Position numbers and translations under genes: made by a program. Below are positions 1,659 to 59,934 of a stretch of 64,000 nt of DNA, one piece after another (within the stretch, counting starts at the first letter, position 1; every line of letters begins with the position of its first letter). The stretch is from an uncultured Verrucomicrobiota bacterium. Its GTDB lineage: Bacteria > Verrucomicrobiota > Kiritimatiellia > JAAZAB01. Where the stretch lies: NCBI GenBank assembly GCA_964444425.1, contig CAYUHK010000004.1:12837-76836 (forward strand). The letters run 5' to 3'. The notes under the pieces are model-generated. The model was not told where the DNA came from, ran no database searches, and worked only from the letters and a program-made list of their open reading frames with translations.

Positions 1659-2444
1659 TCATCGCAAGGTTTTCAGAAAACCAGCTATCCTTTTTAACAC
1701 TGCGACCTCAGCGGCGTCGGCGCCTTCATATTCCACCGAGAGAAAACCACGAAAGCCGGCTTGCGCCAGGATGGAGTGAATGCGCGCCCAATCAAAATTC
1801 TGATCGCGGCCATCCGCGAGAACATCGAAGAATTTAGCATGCACGATGGCGGCGTGGGGCGCACAACGCTGAATGGATTGATAGGTCTGCGGGCCCACCT
1901 GGCTGGTTGGCGGAAAATTACCCGTGTCTAAAGTGAATTTAAAAAATTCGTTGTCGACATCGCGCTGCAGCTTGAGCAGCTGATCGGCAGTGGTGCCGCC
2001 ATGGTTTTCCATCGCCATGACAATGCCTTGGCGGGCGCCCAACTCAGCGATTTGTTTGATCGCCTGGAGCACCTTTTGATATAGGCTGCTGCCGCCAGCT
2101 TCCAGCTCGGCGCCGCTGCCGCAGAAAAAGCGTACGCAGGGCGCTCCCAAGAAGGCGGCTACCTCCACCCAACGGGCGATCCCTTCGATCTGCTTCTGGC
2201 GTTCGGCGTCGTCATCAACTGTTAAGTGGCCATCGGCGGAAACCATTGCAATGGTCAAAAAATTATCGCTGCAGGCCTTTTTAAGTTTAATGAGATAATC
2301 GCGCTGTGTGCTCGGAAAATGACAGCCTAATAATTCCACTCCATCCAGGCCCAAGGCGGCACATTCCTTCAGCCATTGTATTTGATCCATAGAACCTTTT
2401 TCGAAGGCGCGGTGATAACTCCAAGAGCTACAAGATGTCTTCAT
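1659..2444 (-). CDS. sugar phosphate isomerase/epimerase (xylose isomerase-like TIM barrel)
   Basis: 261-aa ORF with the typical AP-endonuclease-2 / xylose-isomerase-like barrel pattern (LDGVEL, HAKF, VEYEG). Confidence 0.7.
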   Translation of the reverse strand: MKTSCSSWSYHRAFEKGSMDQIQWLKECAALGLDGVELLGCHFPSTQRDYLIKLKKACSDNFLTIAMVSADGHLTVDDDAERQKQIEGIARWVEVAAFLGAPCVRFFCGSGAELEAGGSSLYQKVLQAIKQIAELGARQGIVMAMENHGGTTADQLLKLQRDVDNEFFKFTLDTGNFPPTSQVGPQTYQSIQRCAPHAAIVHAKFFDVLADGRDQNFDWARIHSILAQAGFRGFLSVEYEGADAAEVAVLKRIAGFLKTLR

Positions 2445-2630
2445 GCTATTCTCCTTGTAATTTATGGATTAATGGGGCAAAGCCTAACAAGTCAAGCTTG
2501 GAAGTCAAGCAGAAGATGTATTGTGGGCGCGCACTTGATGATTAAGCTCTAGGCCCAGCTTGGCTGGAGCGGCCTAGCTTGGATTGCAGCCTTGAAATAA
2601 TAGGCTTAAACAACTATCCTTTGGCATCGC

Positions 2631-3620
2631 ATGAGAGCTCGGACGGCTTTATTTTTTAAGCGCTATAAATCTCTCCTCAGGGTGCTGATCAGCCTGTTGC
2701 TGCTGGCTTATGTCGCGCGGCAGATTGATTGGCGCGCCGGCCTGAGCCTGATGCCGCGCGCCAATCTGGTTTTAATGGCCCTAGCGGTTATCCTGCTAAC
2801 TCTTGAACGCATCGTGAGCGTGCTTAAGTGGTTCTTGCTTTTGCGCGCGCGCGGCGGCCGGATTTCTTTTGGGCGGCTATTGATTATTAATTACGTGGGC
2901 GGCTTCTGGGGCCTGATCCTGCCATCCAGCGTCAGCGCCGATATCGTCCGCGGCTATTATCTGGCGCGGACATCCGCCGGCCTGGCTCTAACGGTAACCT
3001 CCATGTTTATGGATCGGGTCCTATCGGGATTGGCCTTGCTTTCTTTGGCAGCGCTCGGCGGCTGGCTGGCCGGCAATCGTTTTGGCTTTGTGCATCATCG
3101 CGCAGTCATCGCCCTGGGCTTGGGCCTCGCCGGTCTGGCGCTGGCGCTGCTGACGCGGCCGGCTGTCTTGGGTTGGCTTGAGCGAGTTATAGCCCAGCGC
3201 GGCGGCCAGCGGCCCTTGCAACAGCGCTTGCGCGCTTGGCTGCAGTTTTGTTTGGAATATCGGCGATATCGCGGGTTGCTGGCACGAACCTTTGGGCTAT
3301 CCATCCTGATGCAGGTGATCAGGGTGTTGGTGTTTTATCTGGTGGCCGAGGCTTTTCAGGTTCATATTCCCATGCTCTATTATTTATTGTTTACGCCGAT
3401 CATTACGGTTTTAATCATGTTGCCGGTGGCCTTTGGTGGAATCGGCATCCGCGAGGGTAGTTTCGTGGCTTTCTTCACGCTGGTGGGGGTAGGTTCAGCC
3501 GACGCCTTCGTGATTTCCTTTACTGTCTCCCTGCTGACCATTTTGACGACAGCCGTGGGCGGGGTCATTTATCTATGCGATAAAGGCGCCCAGCCGCCGG
3601 CGCCCAGTCAGTCGACTTGA
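2631..3620 (+). CDS. flippase-like / lysylphosphatidylglycerol-synthase TM-domain family membrane protein
   Basis: 329-aa polytopic membrane ORF. Basic N-terminus followed by about 8 hydrophobic segments, resembling the UPF0104/LPG_synthase_TM family. Confidence 0.55.
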   Translation: MRARTALFFKRYKSLLRVLISLLLLAYVARQIDWRAGLSLMPRANLVLMALAVILLTLERIVSVLKWFLLLRARGGRISFGRLLIINYVGGFWGLILPSSVSADIVRGYYLARTSAGLALTVTSMFMDRVLSGLALLSLAALGGWLAGNRFGFVHHRAVIALGLGLAGLALALLTRPAVLGWLERVIAQRGGQRPLQQRLRAWLQFCLEYRRYRGLLARTFGLSILMQVIRVLVFYLVAEAFQVHIPMLYYLLFTPIITVLIMLPVAFGGIGIREGSFVAFFTLVGVGSADAFVISFTVSLLTILTTAVGGVIYLCDKGAQPPAPSQST

Positions 3621-3724
3621 ACGGCCTGGGCCAGCTAAAAATCCAATCTAAAAATTCTTGCCAAGCGCGCGGTCTTCTCGACATAATGCCTTTTTTGATC
3701 AACCCAGCAGGGAGGAATCCAGCT

Positions 3725-4297
3725 ATGACGCTCAGCGCATCGGATCTGCGCAAGGGTTTGCGCCTGGAAATCGACGGCGCCCCTTACATCATCACCGAGT
3801 TCAATTTTCTTAAACCGGGCAAAGGCGCATCCATTTATAACTGTAAGCTTAAAAACCTGATCACCGGCGGCAGCTTGACCAAGAGTTATCGCTCTAACGA
3901 TGTCTTTGATGAACCTAATCTGGACGAGCGCAGCATGCGCTATTCCTATATCGATGGCGATCAATATGTGTTCATGGATAAAAATTATGAACAGATCCAT
4001 GTTGACGCCAGCGTTTTGGGCGATCAACGCTTTTTTCTAGTGGAAGATATCGAGGTGCGCGTGCTGATTCATAACGGTCGGCCGATTGGCGTGGAGCTGC
4101 CTACCTTCGTGGAGAAGACCATCGTGGAGACAGAGCCGGGCTTCCGTGGCAATACGGCTACCAACGTTCTCAAGCCAGCCAAAATCGAAGGCGGCTATGA
4201 AATTCAGGTGCCCCTGTTCATCAACCAGGGCGATATCGTCAAGATCGATACGCGTAGCGGCGGCTATAGCGACCGCGTCCGCATCGCCCGGAATTAA
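3725..4297 (+). CDS. efp: elongation factor P
   Basis: 190-aa product MTLSASDLRKGLRLEIDGAPYIITEFNFLKPGKGASIY... with the conserved KPGKG loop. GGGAGG RBS lies 9 nt upstream of ATG 3725. The six-frame ORF starts earlier at 3617, but that N-terminus is not EF-P-like. Confidence 0.9.
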   Translation: MTLSASDLRKGLRLEIDGAPYIITEFNFLKPGKGASIYNCKLKNLITGGSLTKSYRSNDVFDEPNLDERSMRYSYIDGDQYVFMDKNYEQIHVDASVLGDQRFFLVEDIEVRVLIHNGRPIGVELPTFVEKTIVETEPGFRGNTATNVLKPAKIEGGYEIQVPLFINQGDIVKIDTRSGGYSDRVRIARN

Positions 4298-4334
4298 AAT
4301 GGCCAGCTCTAGCGCCGGCCGGCGGAAAGAGCCT

Positions 4335-51748: not shown

Positions 51749-53716
51749 ATGCGAGTTTCATTCATAGGTAAACTTATAGAGTTTAGAGCCTGGACTATGG
51801 CTTGCGCTGGGCTGGGCCTATTGATGTTTCTGCCAACGACAGCAGCAGCACAGGAACTCAAGCTGCAAGTGGAAGCTAATCGGAGCCAAATTTATCTGGG
51901 CGAATCTTTCATTTTACAAGTAATAGTCAGCGGATCCAGTCAGCCCGCCTTGCCCAATCTATCCGCGATCAAAAACTGTACGATCAAATTGTTAGACAGT
52001 CGCGATATCAGCAATTACAGCATCACCATCATTAACGGGCGTTTGGTGAAGGAAGGCTTCAGTGGGCGAGTCGTTAGCTATGAAATCACACCAACCCTGG
52101 CTGGCCAATTGACGATTGGTCCAGTCTCGGTCGCAGTAGATGGTCAGCAGCTAAGCGAGCCTGGTCCCAGTGTCTTGGTAACCGACATAGAGCAACAGGA
52201 CCGGGTTATCATTTCCGTGACGTCTTCCCAAGCCACTGTGCTGGTTGATGAGCCATTTGAGATTACACTCAAAATCTTGATCCGCCGTTTGGCCGGCGCT
52301 TATGCTGATAGCGACCCTATTTTCATAGATCAGCCTCCGGACCTAACTGTGCCCTATCTTGCCGGCGAGGGCTTGGCAGGGCTTGCCTCACCTGATCTGC
52401 GGCGTATTTTAGAAGATCTATTGGTGGCGGCGCGCAATCAGCCTGGACTGGCTATCAATCATCTCAGCCTAGCGCCGGACCTTTTTGATTTTGATAGCTT
52501 CTTCCGGGAAATGGCTGGCCAGGGTCGCAAGGCTAAATTCATGCTGCCTCGGCGTGAGGCCCAACAGGATCATCAGCTTTATTTTGAATATAGTCTGACC
52601 GTGCCATTCGTTCCCCAGGATGAGAATAATTATGTATTTGGCCCAGTGGTCTTCAAGGGCACTGTGCCGACAGAGATCAGCTCACAAGGGCAAGCTAAAG
52701 GAATGCCAATATTTGCGGTAGGGCCTGCTTGTACGGTGCGTGTGGTTCCGCCACCTGAGGAAGGCCGCCCCTTGTCGTTTACTGGCGGCTTGGGCACGAA
52801 TTTGGCAGCAACAGCCGCGCTGGATGTTGTTGAAGGCAAAGTCGGTGATCCCTTGAAACTAACCTTGGCTTTATCAGGCCAAATTCGTTTCGATAAAATG
52901 TTGCCACCAAAACTTAACTTGCAAACGAATATCACTCGGCATTTTACCGTTTACGACGATACAGTACAAACCGTTAAGCAGGATAATCAACGTAAATATA
53001 TTTATATCCTGCGCCCTGATCATCCCGGATCATTTGAGCTCCCGCCAATTGAAATAGCCTATTACGATACGCAATGTCGTAAATATAAAACGATATCCAC
53101 TCAGCCGGTACCGATCACAATCATGCGTGGCGCGGAAGTATCGGCGGCTCAACTTATCGGGAATACCAATGTTTGGCGAGAAGCGCAGCCGGATTCAGAT
53201 GCTGCGACAATGCTGCCGGCGCCTATTCGTCCAGTGGCCGGAGGAGCTAATTCACAACCTCTAGGCAGCCGCGGACTCCTGGCAGCGGCTGCGGCAGGGC
53301 CATTGGTTTATCTTCTAGTTGTTCTGGCTGGTCTCATCCGCGAACACTATGGTCAATGGAGACAAGCCTCCCGCCGGCGGCTGGCTCTGCGTCATACTTT
53401 AAGGCATTTGCAGCTGGCCAAGCGGCAGGCGCAGCGCGAACCGGGCAAGGTCGGGCAGGTGATTCGTACGGCTATCTGTTATTACCTAACCAGCCGGCTG
53501 GCCGCTTGCGCCTCTAGTCTAACCCCTGATGATGTTCGCCGGCTGCTTTCAGAAGCCGATATTTCTCAACCGACTCGCGACGATCTTGTTGCTATCTTTG
53601 AACGATGTTTCAATGCAGACTATTCAAAGCAGAATTCAATCAGTCATGCTTTAGCCGCTGATGTCCATCAGGTTCGTCGCTTGTTGCAAACAATTGATGG
53701 CGAGATAAGATCATGA
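51749..53716 (+). CDS. batD: BatD-like oxygen-tolerance protein
   Basis: 655 aa with signal peptide, large extracytoplasmic region, C-terminal TM (LVYLLVVLAGLI) and cytoplasmic tail, in the canonical position after batB. Confidence 0.55.
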   Translation: MRVSFIGKLIEFRAWTMACAGLGLLMFLPTTAAAQELKLQVEANRSQIYLGESFILQVIVSGSSQPALPNLSAIKNCTIKLLDSRDISNYSITIINGRLVKEGFSGRVVSYEITPTLAGQLTIGPVSVAVDGQQLSEPGPSVLVTDIEQQDRVIISVTSSQATVLVDEPFEITLKILIRRLAGAYADSDPIFIDQPPDLTVPYLAGEGLAGLASPDLRRILEDLLVAARNQPGLAINHLSLAPDLFDFDSFFREMAGQGRKAKFMLPRREAQQDHQLYFEYSLTVPFVPQDENNYVFGPVVFKGTVPTEISSQGQAKGMPIFAVGPACTVRVVPPPEEGRPLSFTGGLGTNLAATAALDVVEGKVGDPLKLTLALSGQIRFDKMLPPKLNLQTNITRHFTVYDDTVQTVKQDNQRKYIYILRPDHPGSFELPPIEIAYYDTQCRKYKTISTQPVPITIMRGAEVSAAQLIGNTNVWREAQPDSDAATMLPAPIRPVAGGANSQPLGSRGLLAAAAAGPLVYLLVVLAGLIREHYGQWRQASRRRLALRHTLRHLQLAKRQAQREPGKVGQVIRTAICYYLTSRLAACASSLTPDDVRRLLSEADISQPTRDDLVAIFERCFNADYSKQNSISHALAADVHQVRRLLQTIDGEIRS

Positions 53717-54438
53717 GTAAAATCGTTGCATACTTAGCTGCTGTCAAGCATCTCTCAAAGGGTTGTTGGATAGCGCCGCCGCGTTGGCTAAATAATATAA
53801 GCTTGGTTCTATTCATACTGTTTATGGCAACTCTGCCAGCGCGGAGTATGGATGCATCTGAAGGAAGTTTCATTTGGAACGAGGCTAATGCGCTTATGGG
53901 TTCGGCCACGGCGGTAGAAGATTATTGGCGCGCTGCCCAAACCTACCAAAAGCTGGTTGATGCTGGCATTCGCAACGGCCCTTTATTCTATAATCTGGGA
54001 ACCGCCTTGCTTAAAGCCGAGCGCTATGCAGAGGCGTTGGATGCGCTCGCGCGCGCCGAGCGTTACTTAGGTTACCAAGCAGATATAGCCCACAATATGA
54101 AAATCGCTATGGGCGGAAAGCAAAAAACCTTAGGAGTCGAATGGCCCTGGTATAGAACCTTGTTGTTTTGGCATTTCACTTTGCCCAGCTCCATGCGCTT
54201 AGCCATTGCCACGATGTGCTTTACGTTATTTTGGCTGGCCTTAGCTTTGCGCCGCCTGGGGTTGGAGCGCGGGATAAACACCGTTATCATATTGGCCTTG
54301 CTGGCCTGCTTCGCTTTTGGATCCAGCGCTGCCACGACTTGGTATCAGGAAAATACAGCTCGTCGCTATATTCTGGATATTCCGGCTTTGCCGCTTCCAA
54401 ATAATCCCTGGCCCCCGCCGGCCGCGTCAGCATCGTAA
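53713..54438 (+). CDS. TPR-repeat membrane protein (BatC/BatE-like), last gene of the Bat operon
   Basis: 241 aa with TPR motif (YNLGTALLKAERYAEALDALARAERYLG) followed by TM helices. Start overlaps the batD stop (ATGA). Confidence 0.5.
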   Translation: MSKIVAYLAAVKHLSKGCWIAPPRWLNNISLVLFILFMATLPARSMDASEGSFIWNEANALMGSATAVEDYWRAAQTYQKLVDAGIRNGPLFYNLGTALLKAERYAEALDALARAERYLGYQADIAHNMKIAMGGKQKTLGVEWPWYRTLLFWHFTLPSSMRLAIATMCFTLFWLALALRRLGLERGINTVIILALLACFAFGSSAATTWYQENTARRYILDIPALPLPNNPWPPPAASAS

Positions 54439-54555: not shown

Positions 54556-54598
54556 AACGCCTGCGGCAAGCGCGATTGGCTGCCGCAGGCGTTGTTTT
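54556..54598 (+). terminator. strong intrinsic terminator ending the Bat operon
   Basis: Perfect 13-bp stem AACGCCTGCGGCA / TGCCGCAGGCGTT with a 12-nt loop, followed by GTTTT. Confidence 0.6.
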
Positions 54599-54616: not shown

Positions 54617-55591
54617 TTAGCGATAAAGAAAATAATAGGCCCATTGTAGGTAGTAATTATAGTAATAGTTAGCGTAAGAAGTATAGCCATAATACATGTA
54701 ATAACACCATAGAGCATAGCCGTAGTAATGGTAAGCATAGGCAAGATGCCGGTATGTCCTCGCATTATCATAATAATAATTGGCTAGCTTATAGTAATAG
54801 GCGAAATTGGTGGCATAGGTATAAAGATCATAATAATGCTTAGCATATTTAGCATAGTATTGGTAGGCTTGCGTCGCTAAAGAGCTATTGCCATGGTAGA
54901 GATAGTAGTAATAGTTGGCATAGGCATAGTATAAATAGGCGTTGTACAGGTAGTAGTATGATCCGGTTTTTTGGTAGTAGCTTAAATAGCTCATGGCCTG
55001 GTTATAATTTTGCCTATACCTGGTGTAGTTAGCCTCTGCGGCGCTGGCTTTAAGTGTCAGGGTATGGGTCCAAGTATGCCCGCCGGCTTTGCAAACCCAG
55101 TTATATGTATTAACGCTTGGGCCGTTGTCTGGCCAAGGATCGTTCAGATAGACAGATTTATTGGCGATTCCCCGTATAACCAGCATATGTCCGCCGCCGC
55201 CATCCCATCCCCAGCGAATGAGGACTGGACGCGACTGGGCTATTTCTGTTTGTAAACTGCTTAACGATAAAGCGGCAGCGTGGCTCTGGGTATCCAGTTT
55301 TCCAAAATGTTTAAGGATTAAGTCAGCTCCGCGCCTGCTGGAATCGGAGCCATAAAGGTAATTAGCTACATTTTTGCCGCCTACCGCCCATTTAGCAATA
55401 GCCGCTTGCGAATAGGAATAGCCTTTGAACAGCAGAACCATCTGAGAGCTAGCGCACCAACACCACTGATTTTTTTCTTGGTAACGTTGGGGCACGTTCA
55501 ATACGGCTCCTTGGCATAAATGAGCCGCCGCCAGCATAGCAACAACCAGGCCAGTTGCTATGGTTTTAGTAAAATGATGGCAAGGGTTCAT
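54617..55591 (-). CDS. secreted papain-like cysteine peptidase (C39-like domain) with extreme tyrosine-rich C-terminal tail
   Basis: 324 aa with signal peptide. Nucleophile region NQWCWCASSQMVLLFKG and His region GGGHMLVIRGIANKSVYLNDPW resemble the Peptidase_C39_2 fold. The last ~140 aa are ~40% Tyr (YYYLYNAYLYYAYANYYYYLY...). Confidence 0.55.
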   Translation of the reverse strand: MNPCHHFTKTIATGLVVAMLAAAHLCQGAVLNVPQRYQEKNQWCWCASSQMVLLFKGYSYSQAAIAKWAVGGKNVANYLYGSDSSRRGADLILKHFGKLDTQSHAAALSLSSLQTEIAQSRPVLIRWGWDGGGGHMLVIRGIANKSVYLNDPWPDNGPSVNTYNWVCKAGGHTWTHTLTLKASAAEANYTRYRQNYNQAMSYLSYYQKTGSYYYLYNAYLYYAYANYYYYLYHGNSSLATQAYQYYAKYAKHYYDLYTYATNFAYYYKLANYYYDNARTYRHLAYAYHYYGYALWCYYMYYGYTSYANYYYNYYLQWAYYFLYR

Positions 55592-55611
55592 AAAGTTTTT
55601 CTCCTCTTGGG

Positions 55612-56286
55612 TTATTTGGAAGATTTAATCGCGTTCTGAACGGTAGGCTTTAATTCTCCAACGGTAGCGGCTACCGTATCCAAAGTTGAATAATCTAGCT
55701 CAACGGCTGGCGTGGCTAGCGCGGCGCCGGCCGATGGGGCCTTTAGTGTGGATAGCTTAGTTAAGTTATAGGCATCCTTTTCGGGAACGGTAAACAAGTA
55801 TTGTTGGGCCTGATATACAGCTATTAATATAGGATGATAACCATCCGCTGCCTTCCATTGACGATTCAGCACTGCTAACTTTTGAGCTAAAACGGCATAT
55901 CCCAAGGATACCGCTTGCCATTGATTATCCTGCCGATCAACGACTAAAATCGCGCGTGCTTGTCCGGCGATCAGCACTGGAAAATACCAAGAGGTTGTTG
56001 GGCTGATTAATGATGCTACGGCCAAGCCCTCGCGATATTGATCTAAAGCTGCTGGTGTGATGGTATGCAATAGAAAAGGAGCAGCTAGCGTGGCTTTTTG
56101 TAGATCATCGCCACTACGAAACCCATATTGATCTAAGGCATCGCTGGAGATTTGATTTAGAAATGGAGCCAGACCCGCTTGAGCAGCCTGCTGAACATCA
56201 TTAGGAACATTCGGTGCGGCCAATAAGCAGGGGACAGCAAAAACCCCAATCGTTATTAACACGCTTAAAAATTTATATATTTGCAT
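55612..56286 (-). CDS. hypothetical secreted protein, co-transcribed upstream of the C39-like peptidase
   Basis: 224 aa with signal peptide (MQIYKFLSVLITIGVFAVPCLLAAP), no recognisable domain, 20-nt gap to the peptidase gene. Confidence 0.45.
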   Translation of the reverse strand: MQIYKFLSVLITIGVFAVPCLLAAPNVPNDVQQAAQAGLAPFLNQISSDALDQYGFRSGDDLQKATLAAPFLLHTITPAALDQYREGLAVASLISPTTSWYFPVLIAGQARAILVVDRQDNQWQAVSLGYAVLAQKLAVLNRQWKAADGYHPILIAVYQAQQYLFTVPEKDAYNLTKLSTLKAPSAGAALATPAVELDYSTLDTVAATVGELKPTVQNAIKSSK

Positions 56287-56598
56287 AACAAATTTCCTCT
56301 TGGTTTGTTTAGGTTGTCCACATAATCCAGCCTGATATTAAATATTTCCTCCAAGTAAGGCTAGTGCTTTTATATTCTAGCCGGTTAAGGACTATATTCC
56401 AAGATAAAAAATATCCCTAATTTGAGCTCTAATATCAACATCTTTTTAAGAATCGAGTCTTGAGGGCGCTTAGCTTATGCATAATTATGGCTAATTTTGG
56501 GTACATAAGCCTGTTTTGAGCATAATTGGCCATTAAACAGGTTCTTCATTTTAAAGCAGATTTCCGCATACTAGGTTTTAAGGAAATACTTTTTTTAT

Positions 56599-58437
56599 AT
56601 GAATCAGCCTGTTATCCTTGCCAACATGGTTTGTCTTAGGCCTAAGACTTATTGCCGGCTATCCAGTGGGGCTCTCTTGTTGTTAGTGCTTCTCGCCTTG
56701 ACAGCTGGCTGTGCGCGGGAGACAACTGATTTATCGGCCGATGTTTTATTTGGTGAAACCACTCGTATCCGTGGGTTCGATCCAGTAAAAGCTGGCGATT
56801 TTGCCAGCGCTCTAGCAGTCAGTCGCATTTATGAGGGTTTATTGCAGTATGCTTATCTTGAAAGGCCATATCGTTTAGAGCCGCTCTTGGCCGAGTCCAT
56901 GCCGGCGGTGTCGCCGGATGGATTGACTTATGTTTTCGCTCTACGCCGCGGTATATATTTCCAAGATGATCCCTGTTTCGTGGCTACTGGCGGTAAGGGC
57001 CGTGAATTGACCGCGGCTGATTTCGTTTACTCCATTTTGCGTGTCGCCGACCAAAAAAACGCTTCCACAGGCTATTGGGCTTTCCAGGATCGTATCGTTG
57101 GTTTGGATGCCTTTCGTGCTGCTTCCGGCACTGCCGGGCCAACTGATTATGGACTGCCAGTGGCCGGATTATGTGCCATTGATCGTTATACATTGAAGAT
57201 CACTCTAACGCAGCCTTATCCACAAATTCTTTGGGTGTTAACCATGCCATATGCCGTGGCTCTGCCATGCGAGGCTGTAGAATTTTATGGCAATGAGTTG
57301 GTTAATCACCCAGTGGGGACGGGGCCTTTTATGCTTAAATCTTGGTGGCGCAATTATCGTTTGGAATATGTGCGTAATCTCAAGTGGGCGGAATCTGGCC
57401 GCCAGGATTGTTATCCTTTGAGCGGCTCAAAGGAAGATCATGCTCAAGGATTGTTGGCGGATGCTGGTCGGTCGCTGCCATTTCTAAAAAGCATTGTCGA
57501 ATATGTCGTTGCCGATGATAGTACTAAATGGATGATGTTTGTCACCGGTCGCTTGGATCGTTTCCGTTCGATTTCACGGGATAACTGGAGCATGGTGGCG
57601 ACGGCTGATCGGCAATTGCATAACGATTTAGCGGCGCGCGGGGTCCGGCTCATTTCTCAGCCCACGCTGGAGATTTATTATGTAGGATTTAATATGGATG
57701 ACCCAGTGCTTGGGAGCAATCGCGCTTTGCGCCAAGCCCTAACCTGTGCGTTTAACACAGCAAGCTGGCTGCATTTCTATGATCAACGCGTGATCCGGCC
57801 AACCTGTCCAGTGCCTGCTGAGTTGATCGGCGGGGCCATCCCAGAACGTTTCCCTTTCGATCTAGCCCGCGCCCGGAGCTTGCTGGCGCAAGCTGGTTAC
57901 CCCCAAGGAGTGGATCCAAAAACCGGGCGGCGCCTTCAATTAACCATGGAGCTGGCATCGGCGGATAACGTTGAAATACGCCAATCCAGCGAACTGATCA
58001 TTGACTTTATGAATAAGATTGGAGTGGCTATTCGGCCGATATATAACAACAAGCCAGCGTTTTTTGACAAAATCGAGCGGCGCCAGGCTCAGATGTTTCG
58101 CCTGAGTTGGTCAGCCGATTATCCTGATGCACAGAACTTTCTACAATTATTTTATAGCGCTAACGTGTCGCCTGGACCCAATCGAACTAATTATATCAAT
58201 CCGGCCTTTGATCAGCTATATGAGCAAGCCCGCCTGATGGCGGATTCTCCGCAACGCCTGGCATTGTATCGCCAGCTGGCCGATTTAATAAGCGAAGATT
58301 GCCCATGGATTTTTACACATCAACCCTTAGCCTATGAGCTTCAACAAGCTTGGGTAGCAAATGTTAAACTACACGACTTCCCTTTTGGCATGGCTAAATA
58401 TTACCGGGTTCTAGGCCGGCCCCAAGCTGCTCCATGA
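56599..58437 (+). CDS. ABC transporter substrate-binding protein, family 5 (peptide/nickel/opine type), lipoprotein
   Basis: 612 aa with signal peptide and lipobox LTAGC, SBP_bac_5-like sequence. No cognate permease or ATPase genes are adjacent (orphan). Confidence 0.75.
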   Translation: MNQPVILANMVCLRPKTYCRLSSGALLLLVLLALTAGCARETTDLSADVLFGETTRIRGFDPVKAGDFASALAVSRIYEGLLQYAYLERPYRLEPLLAESMPAVSPDGLTYVFALRRGIYFQDDPCFVATGGKGRELTAADFVYSILRVADQKNASTGYWAFQDRIVGLDAFRAASGTAGPTDYGLPVAGLCAIDRYTLKITLTQPYPQILWVLTMPYAVALPCEAVEFYGNELVNHPVGTGPFMLKSWWRNYRLEYVRNLKWAESGRQDCYPLSGSKEDHAQGLLADAGRSLPFLKSIVEYVVADDSTKWMMFVTGRLDRFRSISRDNWSMVATADRQLHNDLAARGVRLISQPTLEIYYVGFNMDDPVLGSNRALRQALTCAFNTASWLHFYDQRVIRPTCPVPAELIGGAIPERFPFDLARARSLLAQAGYPQGVDPKTGRRLQLTMELASADNVEIRQSSELIIDFMNKIGVAIRPIYNNKPAFFDKIERRQAQMFRLSWSADYPDAQNFLQLFYSANVSPGPNRTNYINPAFDQLYEQARLMADSPQRLALYRQLADLISEDCPWIFTHQPLAYELQQAWVANVKLHDFPFGMAKYYRVLGRPQAAP

Positions 58438-58536: not shown

Positions 58537-59934
58537 ATGGCTGAATTAATAGAGGCAGATGTTCCTAAGCGCGCGCGGGAATTGTTTGAAAAGGGCATGA
58601 TAGCCATGGAGCGAAATAATTTGCCCTACGCCATGGATATGTTCATCGCGACTTTGGATATCGAGCCCCGCTATCTAAAGGCTCGTAAATTTCTCCGCGC
58701 GGCCGGCCTCAAACATTTCAGCGCAGCGCGCAACGATGTTATCTCTCATTTGCTGGCGACCCTGGCCGGCGGCGTAAGTCTGCTTAAAGGTTTATGGGCC
58801 TTAAAAAGCGGCAAGCCTTTGGTGGCCCTACGGATCGCCGAGCAACTCTTGCGGACCGACGCATTAAACCTGGTTTTTATTAAATTTCTATGTCAGGCGG
58901 CGGTGGCTGCGGATATGCAAGAGGTTGCCATTCAGATGCTGTCGGTAGCTCGCGAATACTATCCTACTCGGCCCGACCTGCTCTTGAAACTGGGCAATCT
59001 ATATACAGCTACCAATCAGATGGCTGCCGCCCAAGAGTGCTTTGAGGCTTTGGTAGACTTACGGCCTCACGATGCCCAGGCCATGAAAGCATATAAGGAT
59101 GCCATGGCGCGCGACAGCATGGTAAAGGGCGGTTGGATAGATGCTGCTAAAGAAGGCGGCTCCTATCGCAGCGTTATTAAAGACGTGCAGGCAGCGGTTG
59201 CCTTGGAACAGGAAGCCAAATCCGTGCGCAGCCAACAACATCTGGAACTGTTGATCCAGGACGCTATCGCCAATGTCAAGCGCCAGCCTGATAACCTGCA
59301 ATTGCGCCGGTCATTGGCCAACTTATATGTCGAAGCCAAGCGGTTCGATTCCGCAATCCGGGCGCTTGAGGAAGCGCGCCGCTTGCCGGGGATTGATGAT
59401 TCTCAGCTTGACGAACTGCTATCCACTGTCCGGCTCCAACAGTTAGATAGCGAAATCGCCTTGCTTAGGGAAAACGGCGACGCTGCCGGCGCGGCTGCCA
59501 AGCAGACCGAAAAAGATGAGTTTTTGTTTCAAAATATCCAAATGCGCGTAGAGCGCTATCCCAATGATCTACCTCTGCGCTTTGAATATGGCGTGTTGTT
59601 GTATGCACGCGAACAATTGAACGAAGCGATTCAACAATTTCAAACAGCTCAACGTTATCCGCGCAATCGTATCCGCTCTCTGTACTATCTGGGGCTCTGT
59701 TTTCGGAAAAAACATCAGCTAGATATGGCGCGTGAACAGTTGGAAAAAGCTACAGTTGATCTTGCTGAAATGAATGATCTAAAAAAAGAAATCTTCTACG
59801 AACTGGGTAGTATCTTGGAAAGTTTGGGCAAGCCTGCCGAAGCGGTGGAGCGCTATTATAAAGAAATCTATCAGGTGGATATCGGCTATAAGGATGTCGC
59901 CGCTAAGATCGAGGCCGCCTATAAATCGCCTTAG
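58537..59934 (+). CDS. TPR-repeat protein
   Basis: 465-aa all-helical protein with multiple TPR-like repeats (e.g. LGNLYTATNQMAAAQECFEALVDLRPHDAQA). No signal peptide. Confidence 0.6.
   Translation: MAELIEADVPKRARELFEKGMIAMERNNLPYAMDMFIATLDIEPRYLKARKFLRAAGLKHFSAARNDVISHLLATLAGGVSLLKGLWALKSGKPLVALRIAEQLLRTDALNLVFIKFLCQAAVAADMQEVAIQMLSVAREYYPTRPDLLLKLGNLYTATNQMAAAQECFEALVDLRPHDAQAMKAYKDAMARDSMVKGGWIDAAKEGGSYRSVIKDVQAAVALEQEAKSVRSQQHLELLIQDAIANVKRQPDNLQLRRSLANLYVEAKRFDSAIRALEEARRLPGIDDSQLDELLSTVRLQQLDSEIALLRENGDAAGAAAKQTEKDEFLFQNIQMRVERYPNDLPLRFEYGVLLYAREQLNEAIQQFQTAQRYPRNRIRSLYYLGLCFRKKHQLDMAREQLEKATVDLAEMNDLKKEIFYELGSILESLGKPAEAVERYYKEIYQVDIGYKDVAAKIEAAYKSP

Follow-up and report, generated by a model that had tools for sequence, protein, structure and literature searches.

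A papain-fold peptidase with a tyrosine-rich C-terminal domain and its pro-region-like partner protein in an uncultured Kiritimatiellia bacterium

What might a secreted cysteine peptidase do with a C-terminal tail in which roughly two residues in five are tyrosine, and what is the role of the small secreted protein encoded directly upstream? Both genes lie on the minus strand of a 64,000-nucleotide (nt) stretch of contig CAYUHK010000004.1 (assembly GCA_964444425.1, positions 12,837 to 76,836), from an uncultured Verrucomicrobiota bacterium of the Kiritimatiellia (JAAZAB01); this whole stretch is hereafter the window. An initial annotation, made from the letters alone, had described a secreted C39-like peptidase with a low-complexity tail unlike that of any characterised peptidase, together with a linked upstream protein of no known domain. 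We find that the two genes are a compact operon, that the partner is adjacent or fused to the peptidase in 63 of 79 loci, which bears out the proposed functional link, and that the tail is a conserved two-repeat module, probably folded, which belongs to no described family. The reading we prefer, and to which we give about even weight, is that the pair represents a cysteine protease zymogen split over two genes, with the tail retaining or targeting the protease on a surface.

Gene layout and the peptidase domain

The two genes and the main parts of the peptidase are the following.

54617-55591, minus strand: peptidase open reading frame (ORF), 324 residues
55612-56286, minus strand: partner gene, encoding a 224-residue secreted protein with a prostaphopain-pro-region-like fold
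55508..55591, minus strand: peptidase signal peptide (residues 1-28), cleaved probably after CQG
55043..55507, minus strand: papain-fold cysteine peptidase domain, residues 29-183
55478-55480, 55460-55462, 55187-55189 and 55139-55141, minus strand: codons of the catalytic candidates Q38, C44, H135 and D151, respectively

The partner gene is upstream, separated from the peptidase gene by a 20-nt spacer; the reading frames, their coordinates and the gap stand as first annotated. Two Pfam models cover peptidase residues 31-163 well above their gathering cutoffs: Peptidase_C70 (E=2.4e-12, 47.4 bits against a cutoff of 19, 132 of 141 profile positions) and Peptidase_C39_2 (E=2.2e-11, 44.9 bits against a cutoff of 24, full profile 1-143). 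Peptidase_C39 proper remains below its cutoff (17.8 bits against 22), and the staphopain family C47 of MEROPS (Pfam PF05543) gives no match at E<=1. The peptidase belongs to Pfam C70 and C39_2 and to the papain-like fold; by sequence it is neither a C39 peptidase proper nor a C47 member. These families are close, with C47, C70, C39 and BtrH_N forming one closely related subcluster (PMC10318531).

The catalytic residues conform to this assignment and to the papain-fold, C39_2-type Cys/His pair already noted in the initial annotation. In alignments of 55 and 76 relatives, Q38, C44 and H135 never vary, and conservation of D151 is at least 90%. Papain has the same spacings, Gln-6-Cys and His-16-Asp, and alignments of hidden Markov models (HMMs) match Q38/C44 and H135/D151 to the catalytic pairs Gln/Cys and His/Asp in LahT150 and AvrRpt2. 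The features that mark papain-like clan CA peptidases are present: a papain fold, a nucleophilic Cys at the N-terminus of a helix, a His on the beta-domain, a Gln oxyanion residue about six residues before the Cys and a polar residue about 16 after the His. The top structural match of the peptidase model is mature staphopain C. At the level of sequence analysis, the product is established as an active, exported cysteine peptidase.

Export is indicated by residues 1-28, where a basic n-region, a hydrophobic core and a small-residue c-region, a pattern conserved in the family, have the form of a probable type I signal peptide. AlphaFold2 assigns this region low confidence, with a predicted local distance difference test (pLDDT) of 48-58 over residues 1-30 and below 50 at 1-6 and 24-26. 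A lipobox was ruled out, as the Cys near the cleavage site is not invariant in the family. The partner likewise carries an N-terminal signal-like sequence, in keeping with the secretion originally proposed for both proteins.

The setting differs from that of the better known members of these families. AvrRpt2 (Peptidase_C70), secreted by a type III system, is an autoprocessing effector that a host cyclophilin activates in the plant cell. The peptidase described here, from free-living environmental bacteria, instead carries a Sec signal as well as an additional C-terminal domain, and is accompanied by a pro-region-like partner; no type III secretion genes were seen in the flanks of the peptidase loci. 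The C39 leader peptidases of PCAT/AMS transporters (PCAT1, ComA, LahT150) work at the cytoplasmic face, in contrast to the predicted action of the present enzyme outside the cytoplasm, and no ATP-binding cassette (ABC) transporter is fused to or found beside it, either in the window or in homologous loci.

A partner protein with a pro-region-like fold

A scan of genomes, one per species, yielded 79 peptidase loci, in which the partner was sought with HMMs built from our alignments. It was found adjacent upstream in 58, adjacent downstream in 3 and fused in 2, and was absent from 16, two of which are at contig ends. The loci include Kiritimatiellia/Verrucomicrobiota, Lentisphaerae, Cloacimonadota, Elusimicrobiota, Bacteroidota, Planctomycetota, Myxococcota, Desulfobacterota, Acidobacteriota, Fibrobacterota, Ignavibacteriota and Bacillota, among others. 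The genes flanking the pair are wholly different from genome to genome; on three long contigs the partner is directly upstream of the peptidase and the remaining genes are entirely different housekeeping genes. The association also extends across C-terminal types, with a partner homologue (E=1e-32) beside a 203-residue peptidase relative with a different C-terminus, and another (E=1e-27) downstream of a relative bearing an N-terminal Tyr-rich block.

In fused relatives the partner occupies the N-terminal side of the peptidase. A partner-like domain is N-terminally fused in two proteins of the family (P0067 and P0068; E=2e-12 and 8e-5), and in two Ca. Uabimicrobium loci (L034 and L036; E=8e-55 and 9e-64) the entire partner profile (positions 17-223) leads straight into the peptidase domain. 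The partner has about 70 close homologues, all of 200-230 residues, and no Pfam, NCBIfam or PADLOC family, which agrees with the absence of a known domain reported before. Partner and peptidase together make up a two-gene module that is widespread and has gone without annotation.

The AlphaFold2 model of the partner (pLDDT 86.6, predicted template modelling score (pTM) 0.80) comprises a hydrophobic signal at about residues 1-24, an alpha+beta core (29-166), a disordered linker (about 180-200) and a confidently predicted C-terminal helix (205-223). Its top fold match is the prostaphopain B zymogen (PDB 1x9y). The structure comparison reports no aligned residue range; the match must, however, be to the pro-region of 1x9y, because no mature papain-like protease occurs among the partner's top 60 matches, including mature staphopain C, which is a separate library entry. 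In fold, the partner is similar to the globular pro-region of 1x9y. The covalent N-terminal linkage to the peptidase is found in the fused relatives but not here, where the partner is a separate gene with its own signal.

At the level of sequence, hhalign gave a weak match between the partner family and the complete 1x9y chain (probability 4%, E=0.0095), the single alignment of which is collinear and within the pro-region (partner 25-118 against 1x9y 15-84) and pairs WYFPVLIAGQ of the partner with YYYPVIKDGK. The SspB sequence used was checked against 1x9y and was near-exact over 358 residues, with mature-only chains beginning at about residue 218. The partner profile retrieved nothing meaningful from PDB sequences; two matches to pyruvate dehydrogenase phosphatase were short and discarded as chance. 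The C-terminal helix was considered as a docking element specific to the Tyr-rich tail and rejected, since it is conserved also in the partners of untailed peptidases; the partner is constant across tail types.

The evidence favours a pro-region-like inhibitor or chaperone over a substrate or immunity protein. Of the roles initially suggested for the upstream protein, namely substrate, inhibitor or immunity partner, that of inhibitor is thereby retained, with a chaperone added, and the other two are not favoured. We consider it improbable that the partner serves as a substrate, confers immunity to a peptidase with toxin-like action or recruits substrates as an adaptor: its best fold match is a protease pro-region, it is fused at the pro-region position in two lineages, and the pair is found among housekeeping genes rather than in toxin loci, with no matches from PADLOC. 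An immunity role is further disfavoured by the partner's own export signal, whereas immunity proteins for exported toxins are normally cytoplasmic.

In the mechanism we propose for the split zymogen, the partner gene would give rise to a secreted alpha+beta protein with the prostaphopain B pro-region fold, and the peptidase gene to a secreted papain-fold peptidase of the C47/C39/C70 group, both exported by Sec. In the cell envelope, the partner would bind the peptidase and either aid its folding or keep it inactive, as a covalent pro-region does, and would later be released or degraded. The slot after the peptidase domain would act as a variable address label, here taken by a nearly uncharged domain of about 140 residues and 40% Tyr. 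This tail would hold the protease at, or direct it to, a surface of the envelope or outside the cell; a glycan layer or a scaffold of homologous free-standing Tyr-rich proteins are candidate targets.

Among the closest known systems is prostaphopain B itself (the SspB zymogen of Staphylococcus aureus, MEROPS C47), in which the pro-region is covalent; here it would be a separate gene product with a signal peptide. The third catalytic residue is Asp rather than Asn, no staphostatin-like gene is present, and a Tyr-rich C-terminal domain is added. Regulators encoded in operons with cysteine proteases are known in the staphostatin-staphopain, Spi-SpeB and Bfi-Bfp/Bti-Btp systems (PMC3462683). The likeness to the staphostatin, Spi and Bfi systems consists in a small-protein gene coupled to a papain-fold protease gene. 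Spi and the staphostatins, the latter small beta-barrels, stand guard in the cytoplasm, whereas the present partner is exported, 224 residues long, alpha+beta and pro-region-like. Spi is homologous to the SpeB propeptide and provides a precedent for a free-standing pro-region homologue. The lipase-specific foldase Lif, a steric chaperone whose gene adjoins that of its lipase, offers an analogy: separately encoded and exported, it acts as a pro-peptide in trans and folds or holds the neighbouring secreted enzyme. Lif differs in fold and enzyme class and is membrane-anchored.

A pro-region acting in trans would give a testable function to two families of hypothetical proteins and, if true, would extend the few control systems of bacterial cysteine proteases (staphostatins, Spi) by a secreted regulator that resembles a pro-region. 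A protease combined with a regulator and a targeting module is a known kind of system; the Tyr-rich domain is the component that appears new.

Several individual loci depart from the common arrangement. In three Bacillota loci (L072, Filifactor; L084, Brevibacillus; L087, Paenibacillus) the partner homologue is downstream of the peptidase, and in L072 and L087 its C-terminus has a hydrophobic stretch followed by basic residues, resembling a C-terminal membrane anchor. One Acidobacteriota metagenome-assembled genome (MAG; L042) has two peptidase-domain ORFs (273 and 554 residues), both with C-termini that are dockerin-like by eye, and one partner homologue detected in the locus. On the contig of P0068 (L006), a fused partner-peptidase-dockerin-like gene (2248-4310) is about 700 nt from an IS1595 transposase gene and a WHH nuclease and SUKH/SMI1 immunity pair, which is a polymorphic-toxin cassette.

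The tyrosine-rich tail

The tail is divided into two repeats.

54827..55036, minus strand: Tyr-rich tail repeat 1, residues ~186-255
54620..54826, minus strand: Tyr-rich tail repeat 2, residues ~256-324, with the most conserved motif, SSYANYYYNYYMxWAYYYY, at its end

Tyrosine accounts for 53 of the 139 residues from 186 to 324 (38%) and for 40% of residues 200-324, compared with 2.5% in the other ORFs of at least 200 residues in the window (binomial P ~2e-47 for the tail). A six-frame scan found no comparably Tyr-rich segment elsewhere in the window. TAT encodes 30 of the tyrosines and TAC 23, the frame contains no stop, and it is because of these TAY codons that the segment has a GC content of 33-39%, against 54% for the window. 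Microsatellite expansion was rejected as an origin of the tail, no DNA tandem repeat being detected by Tandem Repeats Finder.

Unusual composition and low GC, and nothing more, might suggest an artefact, i.e. an untranslated frame produced by a frameshift, pseudogene or misassembly, and this explanation is effectively refuted. The tail is in a single continuous ORF with the peptidase domain, preceded by a strong Shine-Dalgarno sequence, and the identical sequence comes from independent assemblies; four contigs, which stem from two or more independent runs, carry the same protein amid the same neighbours. Furthermore, about 40 diverged tailed orthologues (290-357 residues, 41-58% identity) retain the Tyr-rich frame, open over 120-170 residues despite dozens of TAY codons one transversion from a stop, with invariant Ala/Gly positions. 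The named sources of close peptidase or partner homologues are Kiritimatiellae.

An alignment of 22 tails contains 40.7% Tyr, 12.6% Ala, 7.4% Ser and 7.3% Asn, with D+E+K+R together at 6.3% and Pro at 0.2%. Tyr is the majority residue in 55 columns; A223, A225, A239, A307 and A318 are invariant, and G234 and G302 nearly so. The tail is an internal duplication of two copies of ~65 residues, following approximately YYxxYxxYYNLAxQYY ... SYxDLAYAYYYYAYAxYYYYMYxG-[DN]SSxANYYYNYYMxxAxYYY; the two halves align with a score of 120, compared with 89.5 +/- 8.9 for shuffled sequences.

AlphaFold2 predicts five helices for the tail (184-209, 212-232, 236-275, 280-300 and 304-323; pLDDT 84-97), the 40-residue middle helix bridging the junction of the two repeats. 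Independently of the model, conservation follows a helical periodicity (95-130 degrees) in 184-209, 236-275 and 304-323. The all-helical fold is a good prediction, inferred from the model. The extreme Tyr content that had led to the description of the tail as low-complexity is real; what does not hold is the picture of unstructured filler, given a conserved two-repeat module predicted to be helical with a pLDDT of ~90.

Structural neighbours of the tail model are generic helix bundles only, and the tail has no match in Pfam, NCBIfam or PDB sequences. HMMs for sorting signals (PEP-CTERM, type IX secretion system (T9SS) C-terminal domain, dockerin) do not match it either. A TPR/Sel1-like repeat, suggested by the turn motif G-[DN]-S-S-x-A, was discarded: no TPR family matched at E<=1, hhalign against the TPR protein of the window gave a probability of 0.04%, and the predicted helices of 20-40 residues in a ~65-residue unit do not have the 34-36-residue periodicity. 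We found no description of the tail domain or of the gene pair in the literature, and a broader search for Tyr-rich proteins returned unrelated proteins only, so that the initial impression of a tail without counterpart on characterised peptidases persists.

High Tyr content as such is also a feature of the Wzc C-terminal tail, chlamydial Tarp repeats, Eimeria GAM wall proteins and FUS-like low-complexity domains. Their Tyr density is far lower, and they are variously short phospho-acceptor tails, disordered regions or precursors of a cross-linked wall. The present tail is instead a conserved domain, 38-41% Tyr, nearly charge-free, predicted to be helical and exported in bacteria. The composition of this conserved, apparently folded domain departs from that of ordinary proteins; should its helical fold be real, the domain would be an unusual object for protein-folding and protein-design studies.

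Three of the predicted helices have at most one charged residue, strongly favourable interfacial partitioning and negative Kyte-Doolittle hydropathy. In most of the helices, both AYAY segments included, the Tyr residues occur on all sides and are not confined to one face. One could envisage these uncharged Tyr/Ala/Leu/Trp helices sitting in lipid headgroups, for example of the outer membrane, as a membrane-interface anchor, which we regard as quite improbable. More generally, a Tyr-covered, uncharged surface would suit glycans, lipid interfaces or like domains of free-standing Tyr-rich proteins.

The position of the tail offers a further indication of its role. Among 76 relatives, the slot after the peptidase domain holds a T9SS Por_Secre_tail in 21, and in others F5/8-type-C, ricin-B lectin, PKD, BACON, dockerin, Ig, fn3 or FlgD-Ig domains, or nothing. 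The Por_Secre_tail, dockerin, PKD and lectin modules share this position with the tail and have no sequence similarity to it. As this position holds sorting and adhesion modules in relatives, we read the tail, by analogy and with somewhat less than even confidence, as this lineage's occupant of a variable address slot, i.e. as a retention or targeting domain. The surface or matrix anchoring suggested at the outset remains the best guess, by analogy with the slot occupants of relatives only.

Some short relatives end in PEP followed by hydrophobic and basic residues, PEP-CTERM-like by eye, for which NCBIfam gave no HMM support. Separately, seven untailed relatives of ~200 residues (P0034, P0037, P0039, P0043, P0046, P0047 and P0051) share the end I-[TS]-A-I-[LI]-x-L-L-L-[GS]-[ND], which is too short for a membrane span, matches no model and may be an unrecognised C-terminal sorting or docking signal.

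The same slot could be read differently, with the tail as a C-terminal pro-domain or secretion helper that assists export or folding and is then removed, rather than a lasting anchor; C-terminal pro-sequences known from certain secreted proteases would be comparable. The T9SS sorting domain, present in the 21 relatives above, is cleaved after export, and the window-type module is always C-terminal in the fusions seen. We nevertheless find this doubtful, as the module constitutes the whole mature part of stand-alone secreted proteins (one to three repeats), unlike a mere export tag; a different Tyr-rich block is N-terminal to the peptidase in P0070, and no dedicated secretion gene is conserved near the pair in the loci examined. 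The cleaved Tyr-rich propeptide entertained in the initial annotation received no support.

The stand-alone proteins came to light when the tail profile was searched against 1.84 billion representative proteins. Of the seven matches, two are members of the peptidase family; the others are listed below.

P0143: signal peptide followed by three tandem repeats, without a peptidase domain
P0144: two repeats
P0145: one repeat, 124 residues
P0146: unknown N-terminal domain followed by a less Tyr-rich tail
P0147: NHL repeat followed by a tail, homology confirmed by hhalign (probability 92.6%)

P0143, P0144 and a partial third paralogue are in tandem on one contig. In locus L011 (2-2128, plus strand), the small cluster of paralogues comprises three successive stand-alone secreted Tyr-rich genes, one partial, one of 221 residues (two repeats) and one of 263 residues (three repeats). 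A scan of metagenome DNA with the degenerate motif A-[ND]-YYY-[ND]-YY-M revealed four further tailed peptidases and three further stand-alone proteins consisting of a signal peptide and a Tyr domain. Two other searches were less productive: a word-index homology search with the tail only gave one match among 50 candidates, low-complexity words seeming poorly indexed, and a tblastn-confirmed metagenome scan with the tail profile gave 600 pattern matches with none confirmed, probably because of the low-complexity filter. In L092 (2226-6006, minus strand), one of the three stand-alone genes from the motif scan (189 residues) is 42 nt upstream of a 645-residue AlgX-like SGNH and S9/esterase gene, which is followed by an L,D-transpeptidase-LysM gene; these neighbours suggest a setting in the cell envelope or exopolysaccharide.

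Of the 79 loci, the 13 closest are the only ones with Tyr-rich C-termini (at least 29% Tyr), all in Kiritimatiellia, uncultured Verrucomicrobiota or Lentisphaerae MAGs. The single MAGs CAYQNY01 (L019, L022) and JAAZAB01 (L020, L023) have two Tyr-tailed peptidase loci each, and the tailed gene can therefore exceed one copy per genome. Not all of the Tyr-rich modules on the peptidase family are of the window type. A second C-terminal type, in Lentisphaerae-like MAGs, is 34-39% Tyr and ends in VAxGQR, and the block N-terminal to the peptidase in P0070 is a third. Similarity of the window tail to either was undetectable (probabilities 0.3% and 0.6%, respectively). With at least three modules of undetectable sequence relationship on one peptidase family, Tyr-rich modules have been attached more than once.

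From this independent recruitment of at least three Tyr-rich modules, together with the free-standing secreted Tyr-repeat proteins, arises a more tentative possibility, namely that Tyr richness itself is selected. Kiritimatiellia and Lentisphaerae might then possess a tyrosine-based extracellular scaffold or coat, on which the protease docks or which it processes. If true, this would be an undescribed extracellular coat made of a new kind of folded, ~40%-Tyr domain.

A related proposal is that the tail and the stand-alone proteins self-assemble by aromatic stacking into a matrix, fibre or condensate, possibly beta-rich or amyloid-like, with the protease as a matrix-resident or matrix-processing enzyme. 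The homologous secreted stand-alone proteins, three of them in tandem, are consistent with self-assembly, as are the repeated recruitment of unrelated Tyr-rich modules and the near-beta conservation periodicity of the AYAY segments. AlphaFold2 gives a compact helical domain with high confidence, and the window encodes no second Tyr-rich protein; on balance we judge such assembly unlikely.

Chemistry of the tyrosines themselves appears very improbable, whether the tail is seen as a tyrosine store or as a substrate for cross-linking through dityrosine or 3,4-dihydroxyphenylalanine (DOPA), for sulfation or for processing like that of ribosomally synthesised and post-translationally modified peptides. 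The extreme Tyr content is its one direct argument, to which may be added the dityrosine-cross-linked, Tyr-rich wall proteins known in Eimeria. No oxidase, sulfotransferase or other modifying enzyme is conserved beside the pair in the genomes examined, leaving the early suggestion of dityrosine cross-linking unsupported. Several of the MAG names suggest anaerobic digesters, sediment or peat, where presumed anoxia would disfavour oxidative cross-linking, and the conserved Ala/Gly framework points to a folded domain.

Returning to the split zymogen with a targeting tail, several points weigh against it. We infer, rather than observe, that the partner binds the peptidase and inhibits or chaperones it; the role of the tail is drawn from positional analogy alone, and the protein may stay periplasmic in this lineage. 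The helical fold is an AlphaFold2 prediction from ~33 tail sequences, in which a pTM of 0.68 makes the orientation between domains uncertain, and the AYAY segments (212-232 and 280-300) have an ambiguous periodicity of ~155 degrees. Finally, the AlgX-like/L,D-transpeptidase neighbourhood of the stand-alone homologue is a single observation. The tail may also reveal how enzymes are organised on the surface of these polysaccharide-degrading anaerobes.

Flanking genes and expression signals

Signals around the two genes are listed here.

56374..56438, minus strand: two sigma-70-like promoter candidates in the AT-rich intergenic region 5' of the partner gene, 9/12 matches each
56295..56301, minus strand: Shine-Dalgarno sequence AAGAGGA of the partner gene, 8 nt before the ATG
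55601..55608, minus strand: Shine-Dalgarno sequence AAGAGGAG of the peptidase gene, inside the 20-nt spacer, 9 nt before the ATG
54556..54593, no strand assigned: GC-rich hairpin, stem of 13-14 bp, flanked by the stop codon of the peptidase gene and the convergent TPR gene

The partner and peptidase genes have in common the context CCAAGAGGA, a strong Shine-Dalgarno sequence. The intergenic DNA 5' of the partner gene is 32-37% GC; it contains six sigma-70-like sites against 5.5 expected from shuffled sequences, and the promoters are candidates only. Downstream, the hairpin is retained in the centroid structure, and its region has a z-score of -3.4 relative to shuffles. It was not called by a simple terminator scan owing to the lack of a U-run on the minus strand, and is a probable shared terminator of the peptidase and TPR genes.

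The flanks correspond to those initially annotated, with a BatD and a TPR gene on one side, a solute-binding protein gene on the other, and AT-rich intergenic DNA. On the first side, a BatD-domain gene (655 residues, PF13584) and a 241-residue gene with weak TPR matches occupy 51749-54438 on the plus strand with a 4-nt overlap (53713-53716); they form the end of a Bat-type operon that is convergent with the peptidase gene. On the other, an SBP_bac_5 gene (family-5 solute-binding protein, E=2e-57) is located at 56599-58437, plus strand, with no permease genes adjacent in the stretch examined. It is followed on its 3' side by a gene for a 465-residue protein (58537-59934, plus strand), a counterpart of which in locus L009 has faint or weak TPR matches.

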